DNA of 56,738 bases. It comes from a virus (taxonomy: Duplodnaviria > Caudoviricetes). The stretch covers positions 1 through 56,738 of IMG/VR virus record IMGVR_UViG_3300020733_000003. The stretch is one strand, 5' to 3'. The notes beneath the pieces are model-generated. The model was not told where the DNA came from. It saw nothing but the letters and a program-made list of their open reading frames with translations, and did no database searches. The position numbers and the translations under genes are program-made. Below, one piece after another: positions 612 through 42,300 of this stretch (its first letter is position 1; each line of letters starts with the position of its first letter).

Positions 612-782
612 TCAATTGCTAACGATTAGCCGTCTGACCTTATCGCTGATTCCGGTTCCCGGTTTGGACAAGAGCAGTGTTAACTCCTGCTCGTTTAGGT
701 AGATGTTGAAGGCTTTTCGATACCCCTCTGGTGGCTCGGCTTTACCTTTTGGCCGGCCCGGTTTTGACTTGGTTTGGTTCAT
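612..782 (-). CDS. Small ribbon-helix-helix-like DNA-binding protein (56 aa, not in ORF track)
   Basis: MNQTKSKPGRPKGKAEPPEGYRKAFNIYLNEQELTLLLSKPGTGISDKVRRLIVSN: GRPK, beta-strand FNIYL, then two helices; ATGA overlap with the upstream gene. Confidence 0.6.
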   Translation of the reverse strand: MNQTKSKPGRPKGKAEPPEGYRKAFNIYLNEQELTLLLSKPGTGISDKVRRLIVSN

Positions 783-1069
783 AGTGTAACCTCTGCTCCC
801 CCTCGATAAGCAAAAGAATACGTTTGGAAGGATTGGGCATCGGGCGATACTTGCTTGACTTCCGCAAACTCCATGGTTGCCGCGTCGTAATCGTAGTCGT
901 GCGTTATCATATTCAGGGCCTCGATGATACGCGACTGTAAAGATCGGTTAGCATCGAATCCGGTGACTGATCCGAAAGAGCCACAAGGCTCTTCTAAGTC
1001 ACACCAGTCGTTGTTTGGCTGTCCGTTGCCGATGCAACAGACTTCGATTGATCGTAGTGCCTCACTCAT
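779..1069 (-). CDS. Hypothetical protein
   Basis: 96 aa; overlaps both neighbours in the leftward operon. Confidence 0.7.
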   Translation of the reverse strand: MSEALRSIEVCCIGNGQPNNDWCDLEEPCGSFGSVTGFDANRSLQSRIIEALNMITHDYDYDAATMEFAEVKQVSPDAQSFQTYSFAYRGGAEVTL

Positions 1070-1349
1070 TAATTGCCCCTTCAGTGAGTTTAGTAACGCT
1101 AAGGATTACCACGTCTGGTGACGCGGGATAGTGGTGTTGGTGTTCGTCGTAGCAGTTATCGATGGTGTCGTACGGTAGAACATCGATGTCGATTTCGATA
1201 ATTTCATTGTTGATCTTCTCCAGCGAGACGTCATCCTCAAATGGGAAGTTGAAGGTGTCCTTCAAGGCGTCCTTAAGGTTGTCTGCTTCGACGACGATTT
1301 CAGAATACACTCGGACGTTCCGAGCGAATTGGATGGTGAATTTAGGCAT
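1062..1349 (-). CDS. Hypothetical acidic protein (start revised to MPKFTIQF)
   Basis: AGGAG SD just upstream of ATG at 1349; the longer ORF-track start lies inside the hammerhead. Confidence 0.75.
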   Translation of the reverse strand: MPKFTIQFARNVRVYSEIVVEADNLKDALKDTFNFPFEDDVSLEKINNEIIEIDIDVLPYDTIDNCYDEHQHHYPASPDVVILSVTKLTEGAINE

Positions 1350-1368
1350 TGGTTTTCTCCTGTCTGAT

Positions 1369-1431
1369 GGACTCATCAGCAGTGGCCTTACCACTGGACA
1401 GAGTAGGCTGTCTACCTGCTCTGTTTCGTCC
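1369..1431 (-). ncRNA. Type II hammerhead ribozyme HH1
   Basis: Minus-strand RNA GGAC-GAAA-CAGAGCAGG/UAGACAG/CCUACUCUG-UC^-CAGUGG/UAAGG/CCACUG-CUGAUGA-GUCC: full catalytic core, three stems and a GUC triplet; predicted cut between 1397 and 1396. Confidence 0.93.
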
Positions 1432-1481
1432 TGTAAGAGTTGCTTAAAGTAGAAGGGGGATATGCTCCCCCTTATGGAGTG

Positions 1482-1691
1482 TTAGGCTGTCAAAGACTTA
1501 GCCAATGCTTTAATCCATTGACCGGGATATTCCGATGCGGACGCTAGTCGTAAAATGTGTTGTTTCCCGTCTTCAGTTTTTGACAATGCGGTCAAAACAG
1601 ATTTAGCCGCTCTGACAAGATGCGGGCACGTTTCAAGGTAGTAGCGGTTATTTGCGGGTGTGGGATTGGTTTTCATGGGTTTTGTAAGCAT
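1482..1691 (-). CDS. Hypothetical protein
   Basis: 69-aa ORF in the operon, followed by a hairpin and HH1. Confidence 0.6.
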   Translation of the reverse strand: MLTKPMKTNPTPANNRYYLETCPHLVRAAKSVLTALSKTEDGKQHILRLASASEYPGQWIKALAKSLTA

Positions 1692-1770
1692 GCTTTATTT
1701 CGAGGATGCTTGGACGTAGACTGCAAAGCCAATTTCGGAAGCAATCTTCCGACACTCTTCGATCATTCGG

Positions 1771-2163
1771 TTAGCTCGTTATTAGTTCTTCGTGTACCTT
1801 CTTGTCTTGTTCACGTTGTCCGTCAAAACAGTAGTTGGCTAGGGGGAACGTTCTAATCTCGTATGCCAAGTCTCGAAGATGCTGGGCGTAGTAGGCTTTG
1901 TCAAAATGAGGTTCCAGTTCATTCCAGATAGCTTGAATCTGATCCTCTGGAAACAATGCGCAGATCTTGTTCATCCTGATAGTCGTGATGTTGGTATCGG
2001 TGCTGCCGATCACAGTACAGGCTATCAGCCGTGTTCCGAATTCTGGATCGTCTCCAAGGGGATCGGTGGCTGTCTGAGCAGTCTGCAAAGTTAATGTCGA
2101 ACCCATTCCTGTGTGAATGATGCCGATTGATCCAAGTTCGTAGTAGATTTTCATTATGTTCAC
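1771..2163 (-). CDS. Hypothetical protein (possibly frameshifted near its 3' end)
   Basis: 130 aa; GTGA overlap with the upstream gene. Confidence 0.65.
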   Translation of the reverse strand: MNIMKIYYELGSIGIIHTGMGSTLTLQTAQTATDPLGDDPEFGTRLIACTVIGSTDTNITTIRMNKICALFPEDQIQAIWNELEPHFDKAYYAQHLRDLAYEIRTFPLANYCFDGQREQDKKVHEELITS

Positions 2164-2489
2164 GGGATCAAAAGAGATTTGATCTTGGCAATAGCGTCTT
2201 TAACTTGCGACGTGTCAGAAATGTTGACCATGATATAGCCATCATTATTCGATGAATAGCAAGAAGGTAAAGCGTGACCGGAAAAGCGAACTTTCACTCG
2301 TGGGCCATCAATCATATAGCCTTCGGCATCCAATCCCAAATCATCGTTCCAGACCGTAAGATAACGGGAAGCTGACTTCTCGGAATAACTTGCATAAACG
2401 GTTAAACCTGCTTTTTCTAGTTGATTAGACATTCGATTGAATGAAGATGCTAAGCCAGTGAATCCGCTTGATTTCTTGATAAGTGACAT
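2160..2489 (-). CDS. Hypothetical protein
   Basis: 109 aa; strong SD context AGGAGACAACC-ATG. Confidence 0.8.
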   Translation of the reverse strand: MSLIKKSSGFTGLASSFNRMSNQLEKAGLTVYASYSEKSASRYLTVWNDDLGLDAEGYMIDGPRVKVRFSGHALPSCYSSNNDGYIMVNISDTSQVKDAIAKIKSLLIP

Positions 2490-2499
2490 GGTTGTCTCC

Positions 2500-2579
2500 T
2501 AGTCCCATCGGAGCAGACTTTGGACTGCTCTTGTGGTTTAACAGCCCAGACTGGCTGGACTGCCCATCACCATTGACTA
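2500..2579 (-). ncRNA. Unassigned structured RNA in the hammerhead-equivalent position (candidate ribozyme or processing element)
   Basis: Closing stem UAGUC/GACUA; hairpins CAGCC-AGUCUG-GGCUG and GAGCAG-UCCAAAGU-CUGCUC; ends directly at the SD. Confidence 0.5.
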
Positions 2580-2613
2580 TGTGGGGAAGATAAGACTTCC
2601 TCTTAGTGAGTGT

Positions 2614-2889
2614 TTAGAAAAATGATCTCGGTCTTACATCTGGCCCGTACTTTCCAGAGTGCCGAGCCACACAAAGAAGTTCGTCTAACCAGCCGTCATT
2701 CACTCTTTCCGCAATCGCGTCAAGAATTTCGGTTTTGGTCATTTTGCGAAGTGGAGCGTAACCCCCAGTGATGGAGCATTCGGTTCCTTCGTTTTCCAAG
2801 AGCAAAACGATTAATCCGCTGTTTTTTGACAAAATAATGTGCCCTCGGTAGTTATCGTGAGTGAAAGAGAATGCTGGTTTCGTGATCAT
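2614..2889 (-). CDS. Hypothetical protein
   Basis: 91 aa; AGGGGG SD; lies in the operon. Confidence 0.75.
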   Translation of the reverse strand: MITKPAFSFTHDNYRGHIILSKNSGLIVLLLENEGTECSITGGYAPLRKMTKTEILDAIAERVNDGWLDELLCVARHSGKYGPDVRPRSFF

Positions 2890-3202
2890 TTGCCCCCCTA
2901 TTGAGCATCTCTGTTTCTAGAGATTGGAAGTATGCTCTTGCTTCTGCTTTACCCTTAAATGACTTACCGAATGTAGCATGGCACAGGTAATCAAAGTGAG
3001 TGACACTCCATTTGCGGTTTGTCCACCGTGCCATTGATCCAGCAGGTTCAAACCCCGGCTCATGCTGTTTGAAGTACCAACATCGGTTATTCTCAGAGTC
3101 CACAAACGCATCGATAATCGATACCTGCGACATCTGGCCTTTGGCGTCAGTGTAGTTAGCTAATAGAATCTTCCCTGCTGGGATTTCTCGTTCTTGAATC
3201 AT
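2852..3202 (-). CDS. Hypothetical protein (start revised to MIQEREIP)
   Basis: AAGGAG SD before ATG at 3202; the longer ORF-track start lies inside HH2. Confidence 0.75.
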   Translation of the reverse strand: MIQEREIPAGKILLANYTDAKGQMSQVSIIDAFVDSENNRCWYFKQHEPGFEPAGSMARWTNRKWSVTHFDYLCHATFGKSFKGKAEARAYFQSLETEMLNRGANDHETSILFHSR

Positions 3203-3221
3203 TTTATTGTCTCCTTCTGAC

Positions 3222-3282
3222 GGACTCATCAGCAGTGGCCTTACCACTGGACAAGTAGGCTGTTTACCTACTTGTTTCGTCC
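3222..3282 (-). ncRNA. Type II hammerhead ribozyme HH2
   Basis: GGAC-GAAA-CAAGUAGG/UAAACAG/CCUACUUG-UC^-CAGUGG/UAAGG/CCACUG-CUGAUGA-GUCC; near-identical to HH1, with stem III pairing kept despite changes; predicted cut between 3250 and 3249. Confidence 0.94.
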
Positions 3283-3483
3283 TGTTACTTGTGAGTGAAA
3301 CTCACAGATATAAGCTTTCTGCTCAATAGGCTTATCCCATGATCCGAACCGTTCTGGTTGATCGATTGGTATTACTGCTTTGCCCATGATTAGCTTTGGA
3401 CTGCTACCAAACGGGAAGAGGATTTGCACACTTCCGAGAATGTAGCTTGGTCCGAGAATCGATTGCTTTAATGTTGGTTTCAT
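3268..3483 (-). CDS. Hypothetical protein, first gene of the leftward operon
   Basis: 71 aa; GGAGACAAC-ATG; its stop codon lies inside stem III of HH2. Confidence 0.7.
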   Translation of the reverse strand: MKPTLKQSILGPSYILGSVQILFPFGSSPKLIMGKAVIPIDQPERFGSWDKPIEQKAYICEFHSQVTGRNK

Positions 3484-3499
3484 GTTGTCTCCGGCGCCT

Positions 3500-3558
3500 C
3501 ACTCATCAGAGCAGGGTTGGCAATTCCTGCTGACACCAGCAGTTGCTGGTGTTTCGTG
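3500..3558 (-). ncRNA. Type II hammerhead ribozyme HH3
   Basis: CAC-GAAA-CACCAGC/AACU/GCUGGUG-UC^-AGCAGG/AAUUGCCAAC/CCUGCU-CUGAUGA-GUG; stems differ from HH1/HH2 but the core and topology are the same; predicted cut between 3532 and 3531. Confidence 0.92.
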
Positions 3559-3691
3559 TTTAAAGATCAACTCTATGCAATTGTCAAAGTGCGGACTGTT
3601 GGAAAGCGCCTCATCCGTTTCTGATTGTGCGGTTCTTCCGATCCTCAGATCAGCGACTCTCTGTGGAGTCCTCGGTGCGTCTATGGATAAG

Positions 3692-3719
3692 ATCATAGCA
3701 CGATTCACTGTTTATACAA
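3692..3719 (-). promoter_or_regulatory. Promoter for the leftward ribozyme-containing operon
   Basis: TTGTAT-16 bp-TATGAT with an extended -10 (TGc); GTGCTATGAT recurs at 13233-13242. Confidence 0.55.
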
Positions 3720-4205
3720 GTGGTTTTAGAATAGATTTTAGTGATGGCAGTGAAATACAGTATTGTTACTAGGTGAGGCTATCGATTGAACCTGTGGGTA
3801 AACCAATGTTTCACAGATGTTTCACAGACAAGAGCAGTCTCAGGGGTTAGGTTCAAAACACCCATTTCTTGCCGTCTGGAATGCCCAAAAGTGGGCATCA
3901 AATACCTTGCCTTGTGTTTATATGCCTATTTTAAAAATGGCATCTGAACCGGTTCAGTTTGCGATTTGAGCGATTGGCCCCGACGGGCTGGAGCAGAAAT
4001 TCACAGAAAGTAGTAGACAAACAGGTAGAAACCTACGATCTGAGAATCGTTAGGTTGGCTAAGTATCGTGCGAGGATCGTTTGGAACAGGAAACGAGCAG
4101 AAACTGGCGCAGTTGAGTAGTCCACTGCTGACAGACCAGCAGTCGATGAACAGGCTGTCAGACAACCAAGCAGACGTGCTTAATGGTGCGCTGTGCTGTG
4201 GCACC

Positions 4206-4264
4206 AGCAGTCGAGCAGTCGAGCAGTCGAGCAGTCGAGCAGTCGAGCAGTCGAGCAGTCGAGC
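4206..4264. repeat. Perfect tandem repeat (AGCAGTCG)x7 plus AGC
   Basis: Read directly; lies in a ~900-bp noncoding divergent region. Confidence 0.95.
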
Positions 4265-4488
4265 TTACTCTTGGTTGGTTGGTAGGGTTGGTGGATGGGC
4301 TGTCGCTTTCGCTCAAGTATGTCCCCATGCCCACATGCCCCCCCCCCACACACCCGCTGGCCGCCGATCGCCTCCGCTATCGCCCCGATACAAACTGCGG
4401 CCTATTTTTTTGGACAAAAACCTTTTGGGTAGCATTGTTACTATTTCTCATGGTAATCTAGCGCCGCCCACCCGGGCAAGGAGTTTCT

Positions 4489-4797
4489 ATGTTCATAAAG
4501 CTTCATGAGAACTTTGGTGCAGAGACCTCGGAGACCTACTTCAACATGGCGACGGTCACTAAGGTCTTAAAGAGTCGACAGGACTCGACGTTCTTGATCG
4601 TAGGTGATGAGGGGTGCGAGATCACCGAGACGCCAGAGGAGATCATGAATCTTCTCAAGGTTGCCCAATACAATGCGACGGTTTATCCTGTTTTTGGTTG
4701 GACCCAGCCATTGACTATCAACAGTGAAACGCAGTGGAAGGCAATTCCCCAGACACACACTAGCCCTAACATCAGTGGGGAGGGTCCAAAGGAATGA
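4489..4797 (+). CDS. Hypothetical protein with a FlbD/SwrD-like N-terminus
   Basis: Pattern MFIKL...YFN...V...DSTFLIV...ITETPEEI; AGGAG SD. Confidence 0.55.
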   Translation: MFIKLHENFGAETSETYFNMATVTKVLKSRQDSTFLIVGDEGCEITETPEEIMNLLKVAQYNATVYPVFGWTQPLTINSETQWKAIPQTHTSPNISGEGPKE

Positions 4798-5216
4798 AAG
4801 CGCCGTGGATGAGGGAAGATGGCCCGGGCTTTGTGTTCCGCAAGTTCGAGCCGAGGGATAAGCCCGATAGTTTTCAGGTCTTCTGCCGCTACCGGGTTGG
4901 CGACAATCGGTCGCTGGGTGTTTACCGGATGGGGAACAAGGGGCCAGTGAAATCGCAGGCTCTGAAGATGTTGACAGACGCGACGCCTGAGACACTGCTG
5001 ATGATCCTGTGGCACTTTATCGAGACGCCTATGCTGATCAAGGGGCCGGGAACCCCTGTTAGCCACAAGAAGGGCAAGTATGATGCGGCTAAGAAGCACA
5101 TCATCAAGGCGCTGGAGATCTTTGTGGAGATCAGGGAGGAGGACGAGGAGGAGGCAAGGAAGCTGGCCGAAGAGGTGAACGGAAAGAAGGAGAAGGTGGA
5201 AGATGATGGGAAGTAG
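4794..5216 (+). CDS. Hypothetical protein
   Basis: 140 aa; ATGA coupling; charged C-terminus. Confidence 0.75.
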   Translation: MKAPWMREDGPGFVFRKFEPRDKPDSFQVFCRYRVGDNRSLGVYRMGNKGPVKSQALKMLTDATPETLLMILWHFIETPMLIKGPGTPVSHKKGKYDAAKKHIIKALEIFVEIREEDEEEARKLAEEVNGKKEKVEDDGK

Positions 5217-5595
5217 TGAGCCAAGTATTCCCAGGCACAAGTGGCGCGAAGTCACCAGTTATCGTCGGGGGCGACCGGGTGAGCATAAGGTGTTTGCCTA
5301 CGATGTGGACTTGACTCCAGAGGAGATCGAGGCAGGCCATGTGGTGACGCCTACAGTGGTGTACTCGATCCACGCTGGGGACAGCGACGATGTGCTGGCT
5401 GTGCTTAGGTTTGACGAGGTTCTAACCCCAGATGTGGTGTGTGCGATCCTTGACGACCATTTGACGACTAGGGCGAAGACAGAGAACATCAGGATGCTGT
5501 ACGACCTGAATGTGGCGATCGGCAAGATCAAAGAGGCGTTGGTCCACTTGGTCCGCAGGCATGATGCGGTGCCAGTGCAGGAACCTGAAGGATAA
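5203..5595 (+). CDS. Hypothetical protein
   Basis: 130 aa; overlaps the upstream gene; followed by a hairpin. Confidence 0.7.
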   Translation: MMGSSEPSIPRHKWREVTSYRRGRPGEHKVFAYDVDLTPEEIEAGHVVTPTVVYSIHAGDSDDVLAVLRFDEVLTPDVVCAILDDHLTTRAKTENIRMLYDLNVAIGKIKEALVHLVRRHDAVPVQEPEG

Positions 5596-5630
5596 AAATG
5601 CCCCCTACCGGACCAAGGTGAGGGGGCTAT
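5594..5630. terminator. Hairpin between convergent genes
   Basis: GCCCCCT...AGGGGGC stem with an A-run on the left. Confidence 0.5.
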
Positions 5631-5792
5631 GGAGGATACACGTATGGACACCGTGTCCCTTTGTTGCTTGTCATTTTGTACCGACGTCGCTATTTTTGTT
5701 GAAGGAGACCGCGATCTATCGGGGAGTAATGAAACCCAAGCACCTGCAATGGAAGTTATACCATAGATGGTTTTGATTCTGGCGAGACATTG

Positions 5793-6026
5793 TTAATCTT
5801 CTGAATCTTCAGCAAGAATCCTCTTTAGTTTATCGCTAGAGCGCACAAACATTCCCAGACAAAGAGAAGCGCCACCATGATAACCCATTTTAAACACGGT
5901 CTGATTCTGTAGAATATTATGCTCTTCTAATGCCACAACTGAGGCGATGCCGTATCGTAAAGCCTCATGGCAAAGTTCATCAAACCTATCCATAAAATCA
6001 TCAAAAGAGTTGGGTTCACTCATCAT
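5793..6026 (-). CDS. Hypothetical protein
   Basis: 77 aa; ATGA coupling. Confidence 0.7.
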   Translation of the reverse strand: MMSEPNSFDDFMDRFDELCHEALRYGIASVVALEEHNILQNQTVFKMGYHGGASLCLGMFVRSSDKLKRILAEDSED

Positions 6027-7076: not shown

Positions 7077-7180
7077 TTGTATACATGGCGGGACTTGAAC
7101 CCACATCCTCCATGATCGGTTGCCTTGTCCGGTTACGATCCGGGAGCTTCCGTGGCGTTCTACCGTTGAGTTACATAGAT
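7077..7180 (-). tRNA. tRNA-like RNA or degenerate tRNA with about 29 extra nt in the anticodon arm
   Basis: Acceptor AUCUAUG/CAUGUAU, U8A9, D-loop CUCAACGGUAGA, T-arm GUGGG-UUCAAGU-CCCGC and 3' ACAA; D and anticodon stems are partly mismatched. Confidence 0.65.
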
Positions 7181-31208: not shown

Positions 31209-33362
31209 ATGGTAAATCCCAATCTCATTCAATCGCTGGTTGACCAGGCGGCTACTCAGACAGCAAATAACGGAGGCGTGGCCCAAGATGCAGGAACCAC
31301 CCAAACAAGAACTGCGGCATTGAGTGCCGCCGGGATTACTACGCCTCAAGATCAAACAAAGTCTGCTGGCCCATTCCCGCAGTCGACCTACTACGGCACA
31401 TCAAAGCCATTGCATCCGCTACTGATGCCCTATGCGGCCAATATCCACCCTGAGGCGCTGGAGCATATGAACAACGTGTTGTACGGCGATCATGAGCCTG
31501 ACCATACGTTCTTGAACCAGTACCACCCAAATTCCCAGACGCTTGATCTTAACGAGGGAACGCCTGTTCCGGGGCTAAACGCAAGTACAGGGGAGATGAC
31601 TCCATTTTCGCAAACGCCTGCGCCAAGTCAAACCGGGGCTATTGAAAACAAAGTCAAAGGAAACTTAGTTAAGGCTCTCGAGACGGCAGGGGCTGTAAGT
31701 GGGGCTAAGCCAGATAAAAATTTTCAACCTTTACAATTGACAGAAGATGACCTTAAAAAAGCAGGGCTAAGCATTACTAACCAATACACTCCCGCGAACT
31801 CAATTTACGCATCAACAGATGTTTCCGATTTGGGCGCTGGCGTGCAAATAGATCCATTGACCGGGTTGCCTACTAACACAAGAAACCCAATTTGGGGCAA
31901 AGTGAACGAGTTAGAGCGCAGATTAAAATCATTGCAAGAGCCTGTTGTTAATCCAGAACTGGAAAAGAAAATGATTGAGGCTGAAGGGCAAGCAGGTAAC
32001 TTGAGCGCAAGGCAACAACAAGCTTATGCTGACTGGCTTGCCGCACATCCTGCCCCTTCTCCGCATCGGATGACCGGGCTAGAAGCATTGGCTGGTGGCT
32101 TACTTAGTCTTGGAGATCGTTCTGGAGCCGCCGCACATAACTTCCTCCAGAACTACAACGCTCAGAACGAGCAACAGTATCAAAACGCAATGGGCCAATA
32201 TCAGGCTCAGGCTAACCAACTTACTCAGCAACAAAAAGCCGAACTTGCGGCAACCCAAGCAGGCGCTACAAACGCAGAAACAGCATACAAGCTCGGAATG
32301 CTACCAGTCAATGCGGAAATTACTAAGCAAAAAAATCTTGCAACCGAGTACACCAAGCTTGTTGACGAGGCTCGTAAAGCGGACGCAGATATTATGTCTA
32401 CTGCGATTAAATCCGCTTCAAACGCAAATGTTGCCCAAAAGAATTATATGGGGGTCTTGACCAGCCCTAACACAACCCCAGAAAATAAAAGTCTTGCGTT
32501 AGCATGGCTAAGAGAAAACGTCCCAACTTTCACTAATTTAACAGACGATGGAATTGTACGAATTGCAAATGCACAGTCGTCAAAAAACGTTTTAGACTAC
32601 CAAAAAGCGCAACAAGCATTTGAAGTTGGGCGGCTGGCCGGAACAAAAGCTGATAATTGGGCAAGCCAGTTGTCCGCAGATGAGGCAGACAAACTATCTA
32701 GGGCGTACAGCAGTCTTAAAATGGCGGGGAAAACTGATGCCGATATGCAAACGGTTCTCGCGGCTTTGCCTTACGTTGCAAAGGAAAAACAAGCTGAAAT
32801 TGCGGAAAAGGAAGGGCAAGCGGCTTTAGCTAACGCGAACGCAAGAAAAGCGGCAAACGAAATTAATAGGCAAGACCCACAAACAATTACAAACGAATTG
32901 AAACAATTCCAGCAAACCGTAGACATTCAAGAAAGTTTAATTAACACATATAATTCCCAATTACAAACATATAAAAACCCAAAAACGGGTTACCCTACTG
33001 AGGGCGACCCTCAATATGATGGATTTGCTCTTATCCAATCGAGACGGGACAGGGCGATGGCAGACCTTAGGAAAATTCAAAAAGGTCAAGGAGCAACTGT
33101 TCGGTCACTTTCTGACCAACCCGCTTCAGTCCCGCCGCAAAGGAATGGTGCCGCCGTGTCCCAGAACGCGAAGGGGGCGACGGAATCTAGCGGTGGGCAA
33201 TTTAGCTGGATGATGCCCAAAAAATCAACCGTTATTAATTCCCAAACATACAATCGAATTTATGCCCTTACACAAAAAGCGATCCAAGGGGCAAGAAGCC
33301 AATCCGAAGCCGCTGAGATGTTGTCGAAATATTACGGCACGATAACAAAGGAAGGGCAATAA
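31209..33362 (+). CDS. Putative ejection / internal virion protein
   Basis: 717 aa; helical and coiled; GLEALAGGLLSLG; position. Confidence 0.7.
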   Translation: MVNPNLIQSLVDQAATQTANNGGVAQDAGTTQTRTAALSAAGITTPQDQTKSAGPFPQSTYYGTSKPLHPLLMPYAANIHPEALEHMNNVLYGDHEPDHTFLNQYHPNSQTLDLNEGTPVPGLNASTGEMTPFSQTPAPSQTGAIENKVKGNLVKALETAGAVSGAKPDKNFQPLQLTEDDLKKAGLSITNQYTPANSIYASTDVSDLGAGVQIDPLTGLPTNTRNPIWGKVNELERRLKSLQEPVVNPELEKKMIEAEGQAGNLSARQQQAYADWLAAHPAPSPHRMTGLEALAGGLLSLGDRSGAAAHNFLQNYNAQNEQQYQNAMGQYQAQANQLTQQQKAELAATQAGATNAETAYKLGMLPVNAEITKQKNLATEYTKLVDEARKADADIMSTAIKSASNANVAQKNYMGVLTSPNTTPENKSLALAWLRENVPTFTNLTDDGIVRIANAQSSKNVLDYQKAQQAFEVGRLAGTKADNWASQLSADEADKLSRAYSSLKMAGKTDADMQTVLAALPYVAKEKQAEIAEKEGQAALANANARKAANEINRQDPQTITNELKQFQQTVDIQESLINTYNSQLQTYKNPKTGYPTEGDPQYDGFALIQSRRDRAMADLRKIQKGQGATVRSLSDQPASVPPQRNGAAVSQNAKGATESSGGQFSWMMPKKSTVINSQTYNRIYALTQKAIQGARSQSEAAEMLSKYYGTITKEGQ

Positions 33363-36300
33363 TGGCAAATTTAGACCCCTCCCAAAATAACAACTCACCT
33401 ATAGATTTCAGTGATATTGTTGCCAAATACAACAAAACACAACCGCAATCGAGCAATGGCGTACAGCCACCAGCGGGTGGCAACTCCACCTCAAATAACA
33501 ACCCACCTATAGATTTCAGTGATATTGTTGCCAAATACAACAATCAAGCCCCGCAACAGCCGCAAAGCGGGTCGCAAGCCATCAGCGGGTTTGCTCCACC
33601 TCCGGGGATGCCTCCTTTACGGGGGCTACTTGGCACACCTAATCCCGATGACGGCGACGTAACAATTGTTCCAGACAGCACGCCCTTCCAATCTCCAAAG
33701 GCAGGTAAACGCAAACAACAATCAGCGCCTGCGTTTTCGATGACGCCATCTACGGGAAGCACTCGGTCTGACCTTATTGCTAGAGCCGTAGCCTTGCACA
33801 ACAATCCCGTTTTAGGGCAAAGTGATCCACAGCACCTTAAGGCGTTAACGGACGTCCTGTCTTATCTTGCGGCGGCCCCGGCCACTGGATTCTTTGGTAA
33901 GTTCCCAGTAAGCGTGACTCAACCACCTGCCCCAACCATCCCAAGAGCGCCCGGCCTTGGTGGCGCATTGCTGGGATATCAAGCTCAGATCACGCCTCCA
34001 CAGGGAGGCTACAACCAAGCGATGGCTGGACTGAACCTTGGGCATCAGTCAGCACCAATGCAGGCCGGGGTTGGCTTGCTTCTTCCGTCATGGGCGACAC
34101 AGCAACCTGTAAACCCGTCGGTAATAAGTCAAGCGGCCACGGGATTGGATCTTGGGCATCAGGGAGCAATTGAAGACCAGCCTATCTCAACAACGGCTCC
34201 AAACTGGCATCCGGGTCGGGGAATGATGTTTGGCGAAGGACAGGGTTACAACTTACCGGAAGGGTACAACCCTGCAACGCCGATCAGTAACGTAGCTCAA
34301 GCCCTTGAACAGCACGGGGCAGACTTCCTTGCGTCGGCAATCAAGCATGGCGGTGGTCATGGCTTTGAAGAGCCGATGTCATACGCAAAGCAATTTGACC
34401 CAGAAACACAACTTGGATCTCGAGACATTCAAATGGCAGGCCAGTTTGGGCGTAGCATCAATACAGCGCACAAACTGGTAGCTCAAAATATCGATACAAG
34501 CAATCCAATCGGAAAGACAACTGCTACAATTGCTCACGGATTGATCGAAGCTGTTAACCAAACTCCAGCCGTCTTGGACCCTATCCAGCGTGTGGCATTC
34601 CCTCTGCAAATTCTGTCCAACATTCCTGAATCTGTGCAGTACGTTGGCAACGCGATGAACGACCTTGCAAGTGGAGATCCGCAGAAGATGGGCGTTGCGG
34701 CAATTCAGGTTGCTGGATTACTCATGTTGGCTCGCCATGGCCTTCATGCCGGTTCCGATATAGCAATCGACTCTGCGCTTAAGTCAAGAGGGTTGACCCC
34801 TGAACAAATCGATGGGGCTAAAACCATACTCGGGGAAGCCAACGACTACGCAAAGCAACACGGGATGGTTGTTGATGCGTCGGGGCAAGTTGTACCTGTC
34901 ACCGCTCCGACTGGAAGGGTTGCCCAACTTATTGGCAATATTCGATCTAAATACAGCCCATTGTTTAGATTTAACCAGTTGTCGGGAATTGGGGATCGCC
35001 TTGGTGAAGCAACCGAACCTACGCAATCTTCCAATCAAGCCCCCGTTGAGGCGGGAACGGCTGAGTCCCCGCTCGGGCCGCAATCAGCTCCAGTTACCCA
35101 GCCCACAACCCCCGCCGAGACGGGAACGGCTGAGTCCCCGCTCGGGCCGCAATCAGCTCCAGTACAGGGCTTCCAAACTGATACTGCTGGGTTCCTTGCT
35201 CACAATACTTGGCAATCGGAAGCGCAACGGCTTCTTGATCAGATGCCACAGCTTAGGCAGGAGGCCAACGCTAGAGGCGAAGGGCGCACAACGTCCAGTC
35301 AACTTCGCAAGATGGAACAAGACTTGCGCCGTGGCCTTGCCACGGGCGTTGCTCCAGATTGGCTTCTCGATCAACTTAGCGATGAGTATCGAAACACCCC
35401 GCAGATTACTCAGCACTCCTTGACAATCACCCCATCGTCTCCGATCGAAGGGGCAAGCCCAAGTGTCACCTTTGCCCATGAAAACTGGAGTACGCTTGGC
35501 CAAGCTTTAGTCGAACACGCCGAAAGAACTGGAGATCCAAATCTTGGATTTATCCGGTCTCAGGCTGAAATATCCGCACGTCAGGGAAGACCCACCCCAG
35601 AACTAATTACAGCCATAGCAGACTGGCACGCTGATCTCAACCCAACGCCTGAGCATCTCGCGGCAATCATCTCATCGATGAACCCAGATGAATTGGCAAA
35701 GATGCAACGCAACATCGGAGTAAACAATGGAACCGAACTCAACGCCGCTATTCAACACAACACAACCCAAAGCGCAACAACAAGTGAAGCAGGGACAGGC
35801 GAGCCATCTCCAGAAGGTGGCAAAACAAATGCAGTCGCAGGGGCGAATGCCAAACCTGCGCCAAATGATCAGGGCGGCGAGGCGCTCAATGGGGAACCGA
35901 CCGCTGTCACCACAGGCGCTGGGGATGCCACCAAGCCCAGACCAGTTATCCCCGCTCCCGAGTCCACCACAGGGGCAACTACCGAACCAACTGCCACCCC
36001 TGCCGCAAATCCAGCCAGTGCCAATGAGCCAACTGGTGGGGCCACAGCAATTGCAACAAGGCCGACCACCGAGGCAGTAACAGAGCATGAAGGGCAGACT
36101 GATTATATTACAGGCGCTCGAAAGTCAGTTACCAGCGCAGAAAGGGCCGCAAGGGGCTTAAGCCCGGTTAGTATGCAGGAATACTCGATGCCACAGCACG
36201 AGTACGAACCAGCACGTCAGGCGATTATGAAGGGCGAGATCCACCCAACCGAGCTTGCCGAGGAGGTTGCAAATAAGCCACGTAACCTTACGCATCTTGA

Positions 36301-39300
36301 ACTTAATGCGCTGGTCTACCATCGAGCTACATTGATTGAGGAGTACAACGCAAACGTAAGGGCGACGGCTGAACATAGCGATCCCAATACAATTGCCGAG
36401 CTAAAGGCCCGAAATGAACTATTGTCTCATCAACTTGACATAAATGAACAAGCTTTAACCCGCAGTGGTCGAGTCACCTCTGCCGCCCTTAATGCTCGGA
36501 AGTTAATGATTAAGCCAGACTACAGCCCAGCCGTAGTCAATGGGCTTGCGGCTCAGGCCAAAGGTCAGCCTCTGACTCCAGAAGAAAGAGCCAAGGCCGA
36601 CAAGGTGGGGCAAGAGAATGTTGAGGCCAAGCAGAAGTTGCAGGATGCAAAGGCCAAGCAAGATGAGGTTAAAGCGCAACGAGTAGCTAAGAAGGCCGAA
36701 TCGTTGCCGATCGACGTTAACCGGGATACGATTGAGCAACTAAAAGCCGAGTTGCGAAAGAACGCTGAGGAGTTCAGAAAGAAGGGCGGGAACCCAAGAG
36801 GGCCAGAGGCTGGTCAGGCGCTTCTTGGCCCAGAATTCCTTGAGTACGCTGGCAAGCAGACGTCTATCTTGGGGCAAATTGTCAAGGAGTACGTCAAGGC
36901 TGGCATCGGAACCGTTGACAGACTTTTGCGCGAACTTACAAAGGAAGGAATTACTGAACTTGTTGGGAGGCCAGTCGACAAGGCAACAGTTAAAAGACTG
37001 TTGGCATCTGACGCAAAATTTACCGTCTTTGATAAAGGCGCATTGCGCTACAAACCATCTGTCTTAGGTGAGTTTGAGGATCTACTTCCTCAACAACAAC
37101 AGGATATTGAATCACTTAAGGCATACGGCAAAGCGGCATTAGCAAAGGTATTAACCCAAGACTCCAAACTTCCCTTAGAAAACCAAAAAGTTGCCCCCGC
37201 ATTAAAGCGGGTTGTGGGCGACATCCTAGCGCAAGGTCAGGTAGGGGATACTCGGTTGGTCGAAACAGAGCTAGACAAACTTGACATTAATCTTGATCGC
37301 TCAGACTTAAAGCAATTCTTAAAGGGCCAAGGCTCAACAGTTGGCGCTTTGGGGAACATTTACAAACGGCCTCTTGGGGAAGCCTCGCTTACTATGTTCG
37401 CCGGGGAGAGGCTTGCTGGCTTCAATGAGCTATGGAAACGTGCATTGGATGCTCACAGTAATGGGGACACGGCCACATTTGACACCATTGCTCGGCACAT
37501 CACAGATCGCACTCAAGCGTTTATGGATCACGTCTTTGCGGGGACAGGTATTGAGGCCAAGGTTAGCCATGGGTTTGGTACCTTCCAAGGAGACTTTGAA
37601 CCAAGTATCCGCGCCGAAATTCATATTCCGGGTTCTATGTCTAACGCGGAGGCCATGCAAATTGTCGAAGCAAGACTTGCCCACATTGGCCAATCAACTT
37701 CGCAAAAGAACATTTATATGCGAACCGATGTTCACCCAGATACTCCAATTGGGGATACAGGGGAGCATGGGGTCACGATTGAGCCGCAATATGAAATTGA
37801 ACTTACAAGGCCAGTAACAAACGAAGAGTATAATCAGGCTGTAGAACAATCAGGCTTGCAAGCGGGATCGTTGACCAACGACCGCAAGTCTATACTTGTT
37901 CATGGGCTAGGAGAAACAGATGCAACAAAAGACGAATTCGCAAGAAAAGTTAGAACCCTCATCAAAGCCTTGCACGATCAGGGACTTCATGGACGCACTA
38001 CAGCAGGAACTATTGAACTCAGGAATCTCGGCTCTAGTGACGCTGAAGTCGGGGGGTTCGGGAACCCAAGAAACCCAGAAGCCTTCAGGAGCTACAAGGA
38101 CATTATCAGTGGAGCTTCACCCGAGCAGAAATTCTCAGGAAGCGCACTCAACGGACCAAGAGACAACGTCTGGATCCGAAAAGACATTAATGCCACTTTC
38201 AGGCGCTTTATCTCCTCAGTCAAGGGGCTAGCTGACGACTCAGTGGGGACTGACTCAGTCCCCGACAACATTAGCTACAAGCGAACACCGAAGGGTACTG
38301 AACAGCAGTACAACGTGGCAGATCACTTTGATGCAATGCCGCAGGATGACACTCATCCTTACGTCAAAAAGGCTTATAAAGAGCTTGTCGACGAACTTGA
38401 TCAGCAGTGGCGTAGCCTAAACCTTCGCGTCGAGTTTATGCCCAAAGGGGAGGACGGCAATATGTCCGACTACTATGGCACTGACTCAAAAAAAGTCTTT
38501 CAAGACATCCGAGATAACAACCATCTCTACATCTTCCCCACAGAGGAAGGCTATGGCGAAGAAGGGCAAGGCGAAAGCAAGAACCCACTTCTTGAGCAAA
38601 GCCCATACAAAACCGCTGACGGCAAGCCTATGCTTTGGAATGACGTCCTCCGTGCCGTACATGACGCCATTGCTCATGGCGCATACGGAGCTTCCTTTGG
38701 CCCCAACGGAGAAGAGTTAGCTTTTGTTACTCATGCGCTGGTTACAAAAAGCCCTTGGGCTATTTGGGCGTTGGCTACAGAAACAAGAGGACAGAACTCT
38801 TGGGTTAACTTTGGGCCGCAGGTGCGGGATGCCAGTGGCAAGTTACTCCCCGAGGGAGAAAGGCCAGCAAAAGCTGACCTAAAATATGCTGATCAGAAGA
38901 GTGGCTTGCTTCCGGTTGATGACCTGAAAACTGGCATCCCTGAAATCGACAACAAGATCAAGACTCTTCCAACTGATTACAACTCCGCGACAGGAGACAA
39001 ACCCGCGACAAATGTTGAGCCTGATGGGTTTAAGTCAGTAGCCGATTCAAAGACTCCCGCCGGGTCATTGGATGCTTCGGAACGTGTTAAGCAAAAGGCA
39101 ACCCCTCGTGTGGCGACCAAGGAAGACCTTGAGCCACATCTTAGGCAGGGCAAAACTCCGGTTAACATCCACATGGCAGACCGCACAATGGTTGGTACTT
39201 ATGTGGATCCAAAGACCGGGGCCACTGCTGAACTACACGGGGGATCAGATTATCCACTGCAACCAGACAAGCTTGGCAAGGTTGCATGGGCAGTAGAAAA

Positions 39301-42300
39301 GCCGGGATTCCGACTTGCGACTCACGACAACCCCGGCCTTGTTATCATGTACGCCGGGGGGAAGGACACTCACCTCGGAGGGCAGGGCTACGATGTAGCG
39401 GCGGCAATTATCAAGAAAGCTGTTGAGCTAAACAAAATTACGGAGCAGGAGGCTGTTGACCAGTACAACAAAGCTATTTCTGCCACAGACGCCGCCAGAA
39501 GCGCCAAATTACCAAAAGCAGAAACCTTGGATGATGTCTTGAATGGGCTTGCAAACTACAAGTCGACATCATTCCAGTCAAGAACTGCAACGATGAAGAG
39601 CCTGTTCCATAAAGATTGGACTAAGGCAAAAGGGCTATCAAACTGGGAAGAAATACGCGATGGGATGGAAGACCCCCGAGCGAAGAAATATGCTCCCGGC
39701 GACATCCTAACGCTACTTCATGTCGATCCAGATGCAGAGTCTACCAGTGCGGAAGAGGCAGGTGTTGAGAAGCACCCCGTTTACTCTTACGTTATTAAGG
39801 GGACATCTCTTGGCCATGTTCCTGAAGGGCATTCTATCGTTACGCTTGTTCCTGAACATTTTGCAACCAAGACCTACAGCAGAGGAGGCAAGTCCTTGGG
39901 TGGCCGTAGCAACTACGCTATGGTGGATACCGATCGCCTAAGCCAAGTCGTAGAGCCGAACCCTGACATTGCGGGAGAAAGGGCAAGAATTGCCGAAAAT
40001 GAAAAGCTTAACCAGCAAAAGGAACGTGCCGAAAAGAATGCTCCAGAAGTCCCAGTAGAGCCACCTAAGATTAAATCTTTGGTTGCTGATTTTCTCAGCG
40101 AAGTTAAGCAACACTACGAAGACATTGGGCGAAACCAAAGCGCCCCAAGGATTAAACGTGAGGGTGGACATGCCTCCATTTTCAACGACATGGCAATCCT
40201 TGGCGCAAAGACTGCATATTCGCTCGGGAAACTTGTCGTAGGGGTTGCCAAGCTTGGATTCAACAGCTTAGATGAATTGCTGACCAACGTAAATGAAGAG
40301 CTAAAGGATCATGACATCCAGATCACAAAGAGGCTCTTGACGCAGGTATTGAACGAGCATGGGCCAAACGTTCTAGCTGAGCATACAAATGACCTCCGCA
40401 AGAAGGCTATCTTGGAGGCCGCAAAGAACGCAAAGTTTGGCGACACACTAAGCGCCATTGCTGACCAAGTCCGACAGCAACATCCAGACACGACGATCGA
40501 TCATGTTGTAGATGCCTTGGCCCCCAAACCGGGAGAGCCAAACCCTCCAACAGAAACGCAGAAAGCCCAAACTGATCTGAGGAAGCAAGCGGCAATCCAG
40601 CGCAGAATAAACGACTTTCAGAACGGGGTTAAGCCAACTAAAACACCAGCCCCAGAAGCAAGCCCTGCTCTGCAAGCCATTCGGGAACAGGAAGCCGTGG
40701 TGAAGGGTGGAGTCAAGCGGGCAACCTTGCAGTCAGCGAAGGCAGGGAAGTTTAACGTTGATGAAATTCTTGCCGATGTCCAAAAGGACTTCCCTGACGC
40801 CACTCGATCAGATGTGATGTCGGCGCTTAAGGATAAAGCCAAGGATACAAAGGCGCTGACGCCAGAGCAATTGAATATCAACAAGGCAAAGAAGATTGCT
40901 ACCCTTACGGGCAAAACCGAGGAGATCAATGAAGCGGTGGCCAACCAGACTTACACTAAGCCTGAAGCCAAGGCAAAAGAAGAAAAGGCAGTTGATGCTG
41001 ACGTTGCAAAAGCTGAGTTTGAATACAAGCAAGCTCAAGATCGTGCAAATCGATTCATCAAGAGCCAAGAGATCACGCCCAAAGCAACTGCGGTTCGTCA
41101 AAAACTAAGAGCGATGATGGTCAGTAGCTTTGGCATTCCCCTTAAAGTTGGTACTTCGTTCTTGATGAAGTCTGCCGCCGATACCGTTGGCGCATTGCCA
41201 GCCAAAGCCTACGACAATCTTTTCAAACAGGTAACCGGGGTTCAGGGCGTTGACATCTCAAGTTTGAGTCACGTCAAGGCAGGGCTTGAGAACGCAAAAA
41301 CCAAATTTAGTATTAACCGACTTATCAATATCCTGAAAGGAGAAGAATCCCCATCAGCGGACGTCGAGACAAGTTTCCATCGCATCAACTCAGGTAAAGG
41401 CAAGTTAACTAAAGCAACCGATGTAGCGGCAAACGCCATTTTTGGAACCCACAGCGCCCTGTACTCTCCACTGCTGGATTACGGCCAAGGAAAAGCGGCC
41501 TCGGAGCTATCTAGCTTGTACGCAAAGAACTTCCCCGGTCAGCAACTGGCCCCCGAACAGGTACGAGCAAATATGCCAGAAGAGTTGGCAAAAAAGGCAA
41601 AAACTGAGGGGCAAGAAGGCATATTGATGAACCCAAACGTGCTGGCAAACGCTTGGATGAATGAGCGACCCTTGAACAGCACAGCGATGGGACAAATCGC
41701 TGGAATTGGATCCACCTTGTTGTTGCCTACCCCCGGTGTTTCGTTCAACTCATTTGGACGATTCTTAGAGCATACTCCGCTTGGGTTTGGCAAAACTGCA
41801 ATTGAACAGGCCGGGGCAATCAAAAACGCAAAGCTTGCAAGGACGCTGGCGGCATCCGGTGACATGGAAGGAGCAAATGCCGCGAGACTCCAAGCAATGT
41901 TCAAACAAAGGGAGGCGTCTAAGACTTTTGGCAGAGCCGCTGTGGGGACCGTAGGGTTGGTCACACTGGGCTATGTGCTTGCCAAGAACGGATACCTCAG
42001 TGGCCTTTATAATAAAGACACCAACGAATCAGCCCCAACACATGGGGTTATTCACGTTGGCCCCATTGATTGGAATATCGAAGAAAGCCCCGTAGGGAAG
42101 GTGATGGCACTTGGTGCGCTGTGGGCAGAGGCTGAAAAGAATGCGCCTAGCGATCCAGAGCAGTGGCTAATGAACGTGCTGACTGCCAATGCCAAACACT
42201 GGGCAAGTGAACTTACGCTCAACGCGATAGCAGAGGCATTCCCGTTGACCAGTCCAGCGCGAACAATCAACAACCTAAGAACCCCCGGCGGCAGAGAGAA

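Follow-up and report, generated by a model that had tools for sequence, protein, structure and literature searches.

Why would a phage place self-cleaving ribozymes directly before the ribosome-binding sites of its small genes? The question is raised by a locus on the minus strand, positions 612 to 3719, of the IMG/VR virus record IMGVR_UViG_3300020733_000003, whose 56,738 bases we analysed whole and call the window below. The source is an uncultured freshwater tailed phage. An earlier reading of this DNA, made from its letters and open reading frames (ORFs) and called here the sequence-only reading, had noticed three hammerhead ribozymes in the locus and proposed that they cut the transcript of an operon of small genes. 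Our analysis indicates that the locus is probably a minus-strand operon of nine small genes with four self-cleaving ribozymes, three type II hammerheads and a twister, which would cut the RNA into separate units.

Three hammerheads and a twister on the minus strand

We looked for the three hammerheads (HH1, HH2 and HH3, coordinates in Table 1) in the sequence, in minimum-energy folds and with a descriptor scan, and all three approaches agreed with the sequence-only reading in finding type II hammerheads on the minus strand. Each has the complete conserved core, with CUGAUGA, GAAA, the pair A15.1-U16.1 and C17, and each minimum-energy fold is a three-way junction in which loops close stems I and III and stem II is left open. 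The stem lengths taken by the descriptor for stems II, III and I were 4, 6 and 7 base pairs (bp) in HH1, 4, 10 and 7 in HH2, and 3, 8 and 6 in HH3. Perreault et al. 2011 (PMC3088659) use the absence of any mispair adjoining the core as a criterion for hammerheads, and none of the three has one (10.1-11.1 is G-C, 1.1-2.1 is C-G or A-U and 15.1-16.1 is A-U). Our custom type II descriptor was run on both strands of the 56,738 bases and on 200 dinucleotide shuffles. In the window it matched HH1, HH2 and HH3 only, and the shuffles gave a mean of 0.015 matches, with one match in 3 of the 200; a chance origin of the hammerheads is therefore excluded. The z-scores of the minimum-energy folds, for all four ribozymes, lay between -2.2 and -4.1.

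The 3' products that had been predicted to start at 3531, 3249 and 1396 agree with N17 at 3532, 3250 and 1397. Likewise, an ATG follows each hammerhead after 16 nucleotides (nt) in HH3 and 19 in HH2 and HH1, with a GGAG in between as proposed. The stems of HH3 are indeed unlike those of HH1 and HH2, which share an identical stretch of 32 bases (1369-1400 in HH1, 3222-3253 in HH2) covering stem I, the core and the 3' strand of stem II, and differ in their stems III. Such identity points to duplication or to conversion between copies. ORF9 (3483-3268) runs into the 5' part of HH2, and its stop codon TAG (3270-3268) falls inside stem III.

The sequence-only reading had pointed to the Rfam models as a check, with a mixed outcome: at the gathering score they called a twister and no hammerhead. 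With RF02276, whose curated cut-off is 37 bits, HH3 scored 31 bits over the full model length and HH1 24.6 bits. We attribute this shortfall to the Rfam model having a 2-bp stem II, as a family-specific model gives HH1 and HH2 about 60 bits. The two differ from RF02276, with its 2-bp stem II and tail, by a 4-bp stem II (GGAC/GUCC) with an A on both sides and by having no detectable pseudoknot. According to Perreault et al. 2011 (PMC3088659), a pseudoknot between loop I and the tail is found in the majority of type II hammerheads and is critical for fast cleavage. In HH3, a possible partner for UGCC (3522-3519) of loop I was seen by eye and matches the tail in the RF02276 alignment; the pairing has three Watson-Crick pairs and one G-U, and is hence weak. 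The tails of HH1 and HH2 gave no complement to UAAGG of loop I and match the core instead, and no consistent loop I-tail pseudoknot was seen by eye among family members with AUCAG tails.

The fourth ribozyme, missed by the sequence-only reading, is a type-P5 twister between ORF7 and ORF6 (Rfam core 2571-2513, minus strand). It scored 45.2 bits with RF02684 (cut-off 37.6 bits, E 3e-6) over the full model, 1-58, and 0 of 14 well-known genomes were matched in a control; the z-score of its fold is -3.9. Besides the score above the cut-off, the U-A dinucleotide, P1, P2 and P4 are those of a type-P5 twister. It departs from the consensus in a P2 of 3 bp with one deletion, and in its 3' P5 strand, which adjoins the Shine-Dalgarno (SD) sequence and runs directly into GGAG (2499-2496), followed by ATG at 2489. 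The 5-bp P5 was read by eye only and is absent from the minimum-energy fold. The predicted cleavage site was taken from the alignment to the consensus UAA (2540-2538), between P1 and P2. Twisters commonly lie within 1 kb of hammerheads (review PMC5408937), as this one does. No other ribozyme class was found elsewhere in the window at E<=10.

A hammerhead family in other viral contigs

We asked whether the ribozyme-SD-ORF layout recurs in related phages, as the sequence-only reading would have it. A search of IMG/VR with the pattern GGACGAAAC..GTC..CTGATGAGTCC returned at least 134 stretches, from which 132 distinct hammerheads of other viral contigs were parsed. Applied to 185,579 species genomes, the same pattern gave only 42 stretches, from many phyla, and the two counts together suggest that phages are the main carriers of this form. 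For a covariance model, R1, we used 15 hammerheads from other viral contigs and none from the window. It recovered HH1 with 59.5 bits, HH2 with 59.9 and HH3 with 29.6 (E 1e-14, 1e-14 and 4e-6) and nothing else in the window at E<=10. Over 99 loci and the window it gave 190 matches, duplicates included (some loci overlap), among them arrays of 4-5 hammerheads on one strand within 0.9-2.5 kb (L045, L052, L075 and L051). In 20 multi-copy loci where R1 found many, Rfam called 0 type II hammerheads at the gathering score. RF02276 used in this way misses the phage-borne subfamily, so phage annotation under-reports these elements.

Covariation was measured on the 150 best R1 matches, which are 109 distinct rows, in an alignment fitted to the model, which favours pairing. 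Results showed 99.0% of stem cells paired, compared with 67.6% in shuffled alignments and 27-43% in slid controls. Double changes in stems numbered 548 against 160 when shuffled, and 14 of 17 pairs change on both sides.

The layout does recur among the 132 listed hammerheads. An upstream ORF of at least 40 codons ends nearby in 126 of them, and in 92 the upstream stop codon ends between -2 and +1 nt from the first G of the hammerhead. Downstream, 125 are followed within 120 nt (median 23 nt) by the start codon of an ORF of 40 codons or more, and in 84 of these cases a loose pattern recognises an SD-like word. In 136 listed hammerheads, GGAC is preceded by A in 97% and GUCC is followed by A in 81%. 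Directly downstream ORFs are short (median 86 amino acids (aa) among the matches listed), and 79 of 105 listed have no PHROG family. A named function could be given to 5 of the 105: one HNH endonuclease, three porphyrin-biosynthesis/ATPase proteins and one anti-restriction protein. The window fits this family layout, except for the ORF9 stop codon inside stem III of HH2 and for a hairpin between ORF4 and HH1. The order stop codon, ribozyme, SD and start, nearly fixed in the 132 listed hammerheads, has to be explained by any functional model. Beside a two-hammerhead array in another viral contig (L060) we also noticed a tRNA gene, at 3059-3131 on the minus strand (62 bits).

Tails complementary to the hammerhead core

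The tails of HH1 and HH2 can pair with the core to form a 6-bp alternative hairpin (Table 1), and the predicted 3' product of each therefore has this second hairpin, followed by a free SD. HH3 and the twister have no such tail. As the core-tail hairpin is also favoured in the uncleaved RNA, it may gate cleavage and not merely lock the product. Among the matches listed, 39 of 131 tails have 5 nt or more that are complementary to CUGAUGAGUCC, compared with 7.2 +/- 2.5 in shuffled tails. Counted by cluster, such tails number 33 of 119, compared with 6.3 +/- 2.4, and scrambled targets gave 7.7 +/- 4.8 with a maximum of 30; these counts take kinship between contigs into account only in part. We found no published account of core-complementary tails or of stop-codon abutment in main texts, supplements aside, and an earlier description is possible; the tails are possibly new.

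The 5' flank pairs with the SD in the minimum-energy folds at HH1, HH3 and the twister. We considered such anti-SD pairing as a feature of the family and rejected it: the duplex energy between 5' flank and tail was -5.23, compared with -5.53 when permuted, and 192 of the 200 permutations reached an energy at or below the observed one.

Ribozymes kept where the surrounding genes differ

Related sequences were compared through single low-depth contigs of one metagenome run, X10. Record 3 of this run keeps HH1 (3 differences in 85 bases) and the twister (7 in 84). Between them, 496 other letters replace the 1056 of the window, and the sequence outside both is unlike. Another related contig joins the tail and SD of HH1 to an ORF5-like body; another matches HH2 alone, with stem I retained via four compensatory pairs; and another retains HH3. 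That these contigs keep the ribozymes and differ around them fits the ribozymes being conserved junctions of a gene mosaic, and a ribozyme-bounded exchange of cassettes, as these contigs suggest it, would possibly be new. A different kind of match was seen at 1709-1787, where a 79-base patch matches, with 5 differences, a contig of run X4 (12,365 bases) and both flanks are unlike. ORF5 ends in this patch, which also contains a hairpin (1752-1735) and possibly a mini-ORF of 23 codons; the fold of the patch, with a z-score of -0.21, is not notable.

Proposed processing of the operon RNA and alternative readings

The reading that we prefer is that the operon RNA is processed by its own ribozymes, each of which sits between the end of one coding block and the SD of the next. 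They would fold during transcription and cut, with no protein needed, after C3532, C3250, U2540 and C1397, giving a leader and four units: ORF9, ORF8-7, ORF6-5-4 and ORF3-2-1. The sequence-only idea of an operon punctuated by ribozymes thus holds as far as their position before SDs is concerned, and needs correction in that the blocks they delimit hold one to three genes each rather than always a single gene. The cut type II products would be joined by the short stem II (3-4 bp) only and should separate easily. The upstream RNA would retain the stem III hairpin and carry a 2',3'-cyclic phosphate at the 3' terminus, and the downstream RNA would open with a 5'-OH, followed by the stem I hairpin (P4 in the twister) and by an SD that is free. 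The type II topology dictates that a 3' product opens with the stem I hairpin and leads into SD and ATG. In HH1 and HH2 the core would refold with the 3' tail into a second hairpin. Each unit would gain its own stability and translation, independent of its neighbours. The motifs, the family membership, the covariation and the conserved layout are established, and from them we infer cleavage and its effects. What stands of the processing interpretation first put forward for this DNA is that the coding strand carries genuine ribozyme motifs, set between one stop codon and the SD that follows it; its promoter and early-gene parts do not stand, as detailed below.

Several points weigh against processing. 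Cleavage in this phage is a prediction from the sequence alone, and both HH3 and HH1 fall short of the curated cut-off of Rfam. HH3 has a stem II of a mere 3 bp and a pseudoknot of 3-4 bp, and HH1 and HH2 are without the loop I-tail pseudoknot, with no substitute tertiary contact found in them. With the tail added, uncleaved HH1 and HH2 have a minimum-energy fold in which the core pairs with the tail and stem II does not form; cleavage could be slowed or gated as a result. Across the family, predicted SD accessibility rises from 0.490 to 0.543 after cleavage, compared with 0.550 in a control truncation that keeps the whole ribozyme. Finally, the operon promoter at 3692-3719 is only putative, and our scan did not support it.

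The favoured fold of the uncleaved RNA leads to a different view, in which the hammerheads are conditional: the tail (CAUCAG or CGUCAG) would compete with stem II for the core, and cleavage would be coupled to translation. The RNA would be cut in a brief co-transcriptional window or when the hairpin is opened, for example by a 30S subunit at the SD, and a ribosome terminating at the stop codon could unfold the ribozyme. Besides the folds of HH1 and HH2, the enrichment of core-complementary tails and the many stop codons that abut a ribozyme speak for this view. However, the hairpin fits a role after cleavage equally well, locking the product and freeing the upstream RNA, and about 70% of the listed family members have no complementary tail of at least 5 nt, as is also the case of HH3 and the twister. 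Moreover, the core is invariant, so that covariation cannot test the pairing, and stop-codon abutment may merely reflect dense packing and the conserved A at -1. We consider conditional cleavage unlikely. It is improbable, too, that the ribozyme DNA serves mainly as conserved junctions, that is, short patches of homology between exchangeable cassettes, with RNA cleavage secondary or left over. The swap in record 3 of X10, the contig with the HH1 tail before an ORF5-like body, the 32 bases common to HH1 and HH2 and the many downstream ORFs elsewhere that have no PHROG family would all suit such a role, as would the report that the flanked genes are not constant (Perreault 2011, PMC3088659). Yet stems I and III vary freely and stay paired, which argues for selection on RNA structure and not on DNA identity, just about 20 core bases are constant and offer little homology, and the evidence of swapping comes from single low-depth contigs of one run.

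Two further explanations carry far less weight. Paired cuts might free the segments between ribozymes, whose ends would be rejoined by a ribozyme or by a host RtcB-type ligase to give circular or spliced RNAs. The chemistry of a 5'-OH and a 2',3'-cyclic phosphate fits, and Perreault 2011 (PMC3088659) raised the possibility but reports having sought both products and detected neither; as nothing in the sequence of the window brings the segment ends together, we regard rejoining as very improbable. That the hammerhead motifs are chance matches or inactive, decayed relics is hardly credible. They do score below the Rfam gathering score and the hammerhead core is short, but this explanation is contradicted by the descriptor matches set against their shuffles, the E-values of R1 and the covariation in the family, and it also has to face the position of all four ribozymes on the coding strand in the same kind of place, and the compensatory changes in a relative.

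Processing by the ribozymes may be part of a more specific scheme, which we put forward tentatively: the A-GGAC...GUCC-A subfamily could be an intercistronic "punctuation module" that combines a core-refolding switch with conserved junctions for exchanging small accessory genes. If so, the switch would gate cleavage, possibly through ribosomes at the abutting stop codon or at the nearby SD, or would make cleavage irreversible, and the leader with a 5'-OH and two hairpins before a free SD would be the natural equivalent of ribozyme insulators that have been engineered. The core-complementary tails and the gene swap between ribozymes each provide a specific hypothesis that is cheap to test.

Relation to known systems

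Clustered hammerheads that flank small phage genes, twisters near them and the idea of processing without protein have been in print since 2011. In their account of natural type II hammerheads, Perreault et al. 2011 (PMC3088659) report several that flank single genes or short blocks in prophages. They propose processing into single-gene mRNAs and report cleavage in vitro for three tandem sets and in E. coli for one triple set. Three type II hammerheads beside phage-like genes are also described as cleaving in Desulfovibrio vulgaris. De la Pena 2017 (PMC6155905) reports hammerheads flanking small non-conserved ORFs and a persistent link with phages, and Weinberg et al. 2019 present a processing role as suggested but undefined. 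The hammerheads of the window resemble those clustered in prophages and phages (PMC3088659, PMC6155905) in topology, in core and in forming one-strand copies that flank small non-conserved genes. By comparison, the main text of Perreault 2011 (PMC3088659), supplements aside, does not mention stop codons, ribosomes or translation. Reviews (PMC6155905, PMC5408937, Weinberg 2019) present the role of bacterial and phage hammerheads and twisters as an open question, which this window does not answer. The processing interpretation is thus a plausible, standing published hypothesis for such loci, and the window offers it a compact and complete test case, with four ribozymes of two classes within 2.2 kb and exact predicted cleavage sites.

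HH3 can be compared with HHphage of the haloviruses HF1 and HF2, which is separated by 13 nt from the start codon of the gene that opens an early polycistronic transcript, with a mapped 5' end within 3 nt of the cleavage site (PMC3088659). Both lie in a leader, HH3 16 nt before its ATG. They differ in that HHphage is a core variant from archaeal viruses that needs high salt, whereas the core of HH3 is canonical.

The early mRNA of phage T7 is cut by host RNase III at long double-stranded hairpins between cistrons, and RiboJ is a synthetic insulator engineered from a type III satellite hammerhead with a hairpin placed after the ribozyme. Both resemble the predicted processing in outcome, the cutting of a polycistronic or variable 5' region to leave a defined 5' end ahead of each ribosome-binding site. 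The analogy with RNase III processing in T7, already drawn by the sequence-only reading, is apt for this outcome and fails for the type of substrate, as the intercistronic elements of the window are three-way junctions and a twister, not long hairpins. The hairpin after the ribozyme in RiboJ resembles the core-tail hairpin of HH1 and HH2.

Genes and transcription of the operon

The nine ORFs of the operon are collected with the ribozymes in Table 1. We consider them to be real minus-strand genes, as the strain differences of ORF5 (6 of 6) and the three shown for ORF1 are synonymous. Searches of the nine ORFs against PHROG and Pfam returned zero families, in agreement with the earlier view that these are small genes of no known function, and two Atlas searches gave nothing usable (hits <0.8 at best). 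With these results, the label of early host-takeover genes is unsupported.

Table 1. Features of the operon region, in the order of the proposed transcript; all positions refer to the window.
Feature	Position	Strand	Remarks
Proposed promoter	3692-3719	-	TTGTAT, 16 nt, TGcTATGAT by eye; not called by scan
HH3, type II hammerhead in leader	3500-3558	-	stem II 3 bp, III 8 bp, I 6 bp with 10-nt loop; predicted cleavage after C3532
GGCG, possible pseudoknot partner of HH3 loop I UGCC (3522-3519)	3495-3498	-	by eye; matches tail in RF02276 alignment
ORF9, 71 aa	3268-3483	-	SD GGAG 3492-3489, ATG 3483
HH2, type II hammerhead	3222-3282	-	stem II GGAC/GUCC, III 10 bp, I 7 bp; predicted cleavage after C3250
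Alternative hairpin CUGAUG-AGUC-CGUCAG, HH2 core with 3' tail	3217-3232	-	predicted folds
ORF8, 116 aa	2852-3202	-	SD AAGGAG 3216-3211, ATG 3202
ORF7, 91 aa	2614-2889	-	overlaps end of ORF8
Type-P5 twister	2500-2579	-	P5 by eye: UAGUC 2579-2575 with GACUA 2504-2500; predicted cleavage between U2540 and A2539
ORF6, 109 aa	2160-2489	-	SD GGAG 2499-2496, ATG 2489
ORF5, 127 aa	1771-2154	-	6/6 strain differences synonymous, third position
ORF4, 69 aa	1482-1691	-	ORF list
8-bp GC-rich hairpin, weakly terminator-like	1453-1473	-	between ORF4 and HH1
HH1, type II hammerhead	1369-1431	-	stem II GGAC/GUCC; predicted cleavage after C1397
Alternative hairpin CUGAUG-AGUC-CAUCAG (6 bp), HH1 core with 3' tail	1364-1379	-	predicted folds
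ORF3, 95 aa	1062-1349	-	SD AGGAG 1361-1357, ATG 1349
ORF2, 96 aa	779-1069	-	overlaps end of ORF3
ORF1, 56 aa	612-782	-	ATGA overlap with ORF2; three strain differences shown, all synonymous

A single promoter at 3692-3719 had been proposed for the operon. A consensus scan did not call it, promoter-like matches in the region number 7 against 6.1 expected, and a related contig shows numerous indels here, one of them a deletion of 7 bases. If the genes beyond are on the plus strand, as the ORF pattern suggests, transcription has to start somewhere at about 3560-4068. At 4183-5776, a chain of overlapping plus-strand ORFs started by ATG competes with minus-strand ORFs started by GTG; the plus-strand ORFs look like the real genes, in which case 3560-4068 would be a divergent control region.

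The phage genome and its relatives

The window is the whole IMG/VR virus record, which IMG/VR classes as having direct terminal repeats and for which CheckV estimates a 56.7-kb phage genome that is 100% complete. PHROG matches to small terminase, portal, major head and tail proteins and endolysin assign it to a tailed phage, and further matches include RecT-like and SbcC-like proteins and a primase. Its DNA was seen solely in freshwater metagenome runs, and the runs listed included none of RNA. GenBank phages searched by DNA with the operon region gave zero matches, and exact matches to a 25-base word of stem I and core were absent from viral contigs and metagenome contigs. A search with the large terminase recovered just two close fragments, neither of which extends to the operon. 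With a gapped HH1-specific pattern, metagenome contigs yielded a single unrelated contig, L217 (84,887 bases), which carries two type II hammerheads about 430 bases apart at 1570-2062 on its minus strand; their stem II is not GGAC, and the twister is absent from the contig.

Three other observations concern the window outside the operon. A weak ROSE_3-like match (21.5 bits against 43) at 5785-5849 on the minus strand ends at the ATG of the ORF 5793-6026 and is probably due to chance. At 7080-7180, also on the minus strand, a tRNA-like Rfam match reaches 26.7 bits against a cut-off of 29, and ARAGORN found zero tRNAs in the window. The tail region holds one ORF of 3035 aa (33362-42469, plus strand), whose sole PHROG match, to a family of unknown function, covers residues 1618-1820.

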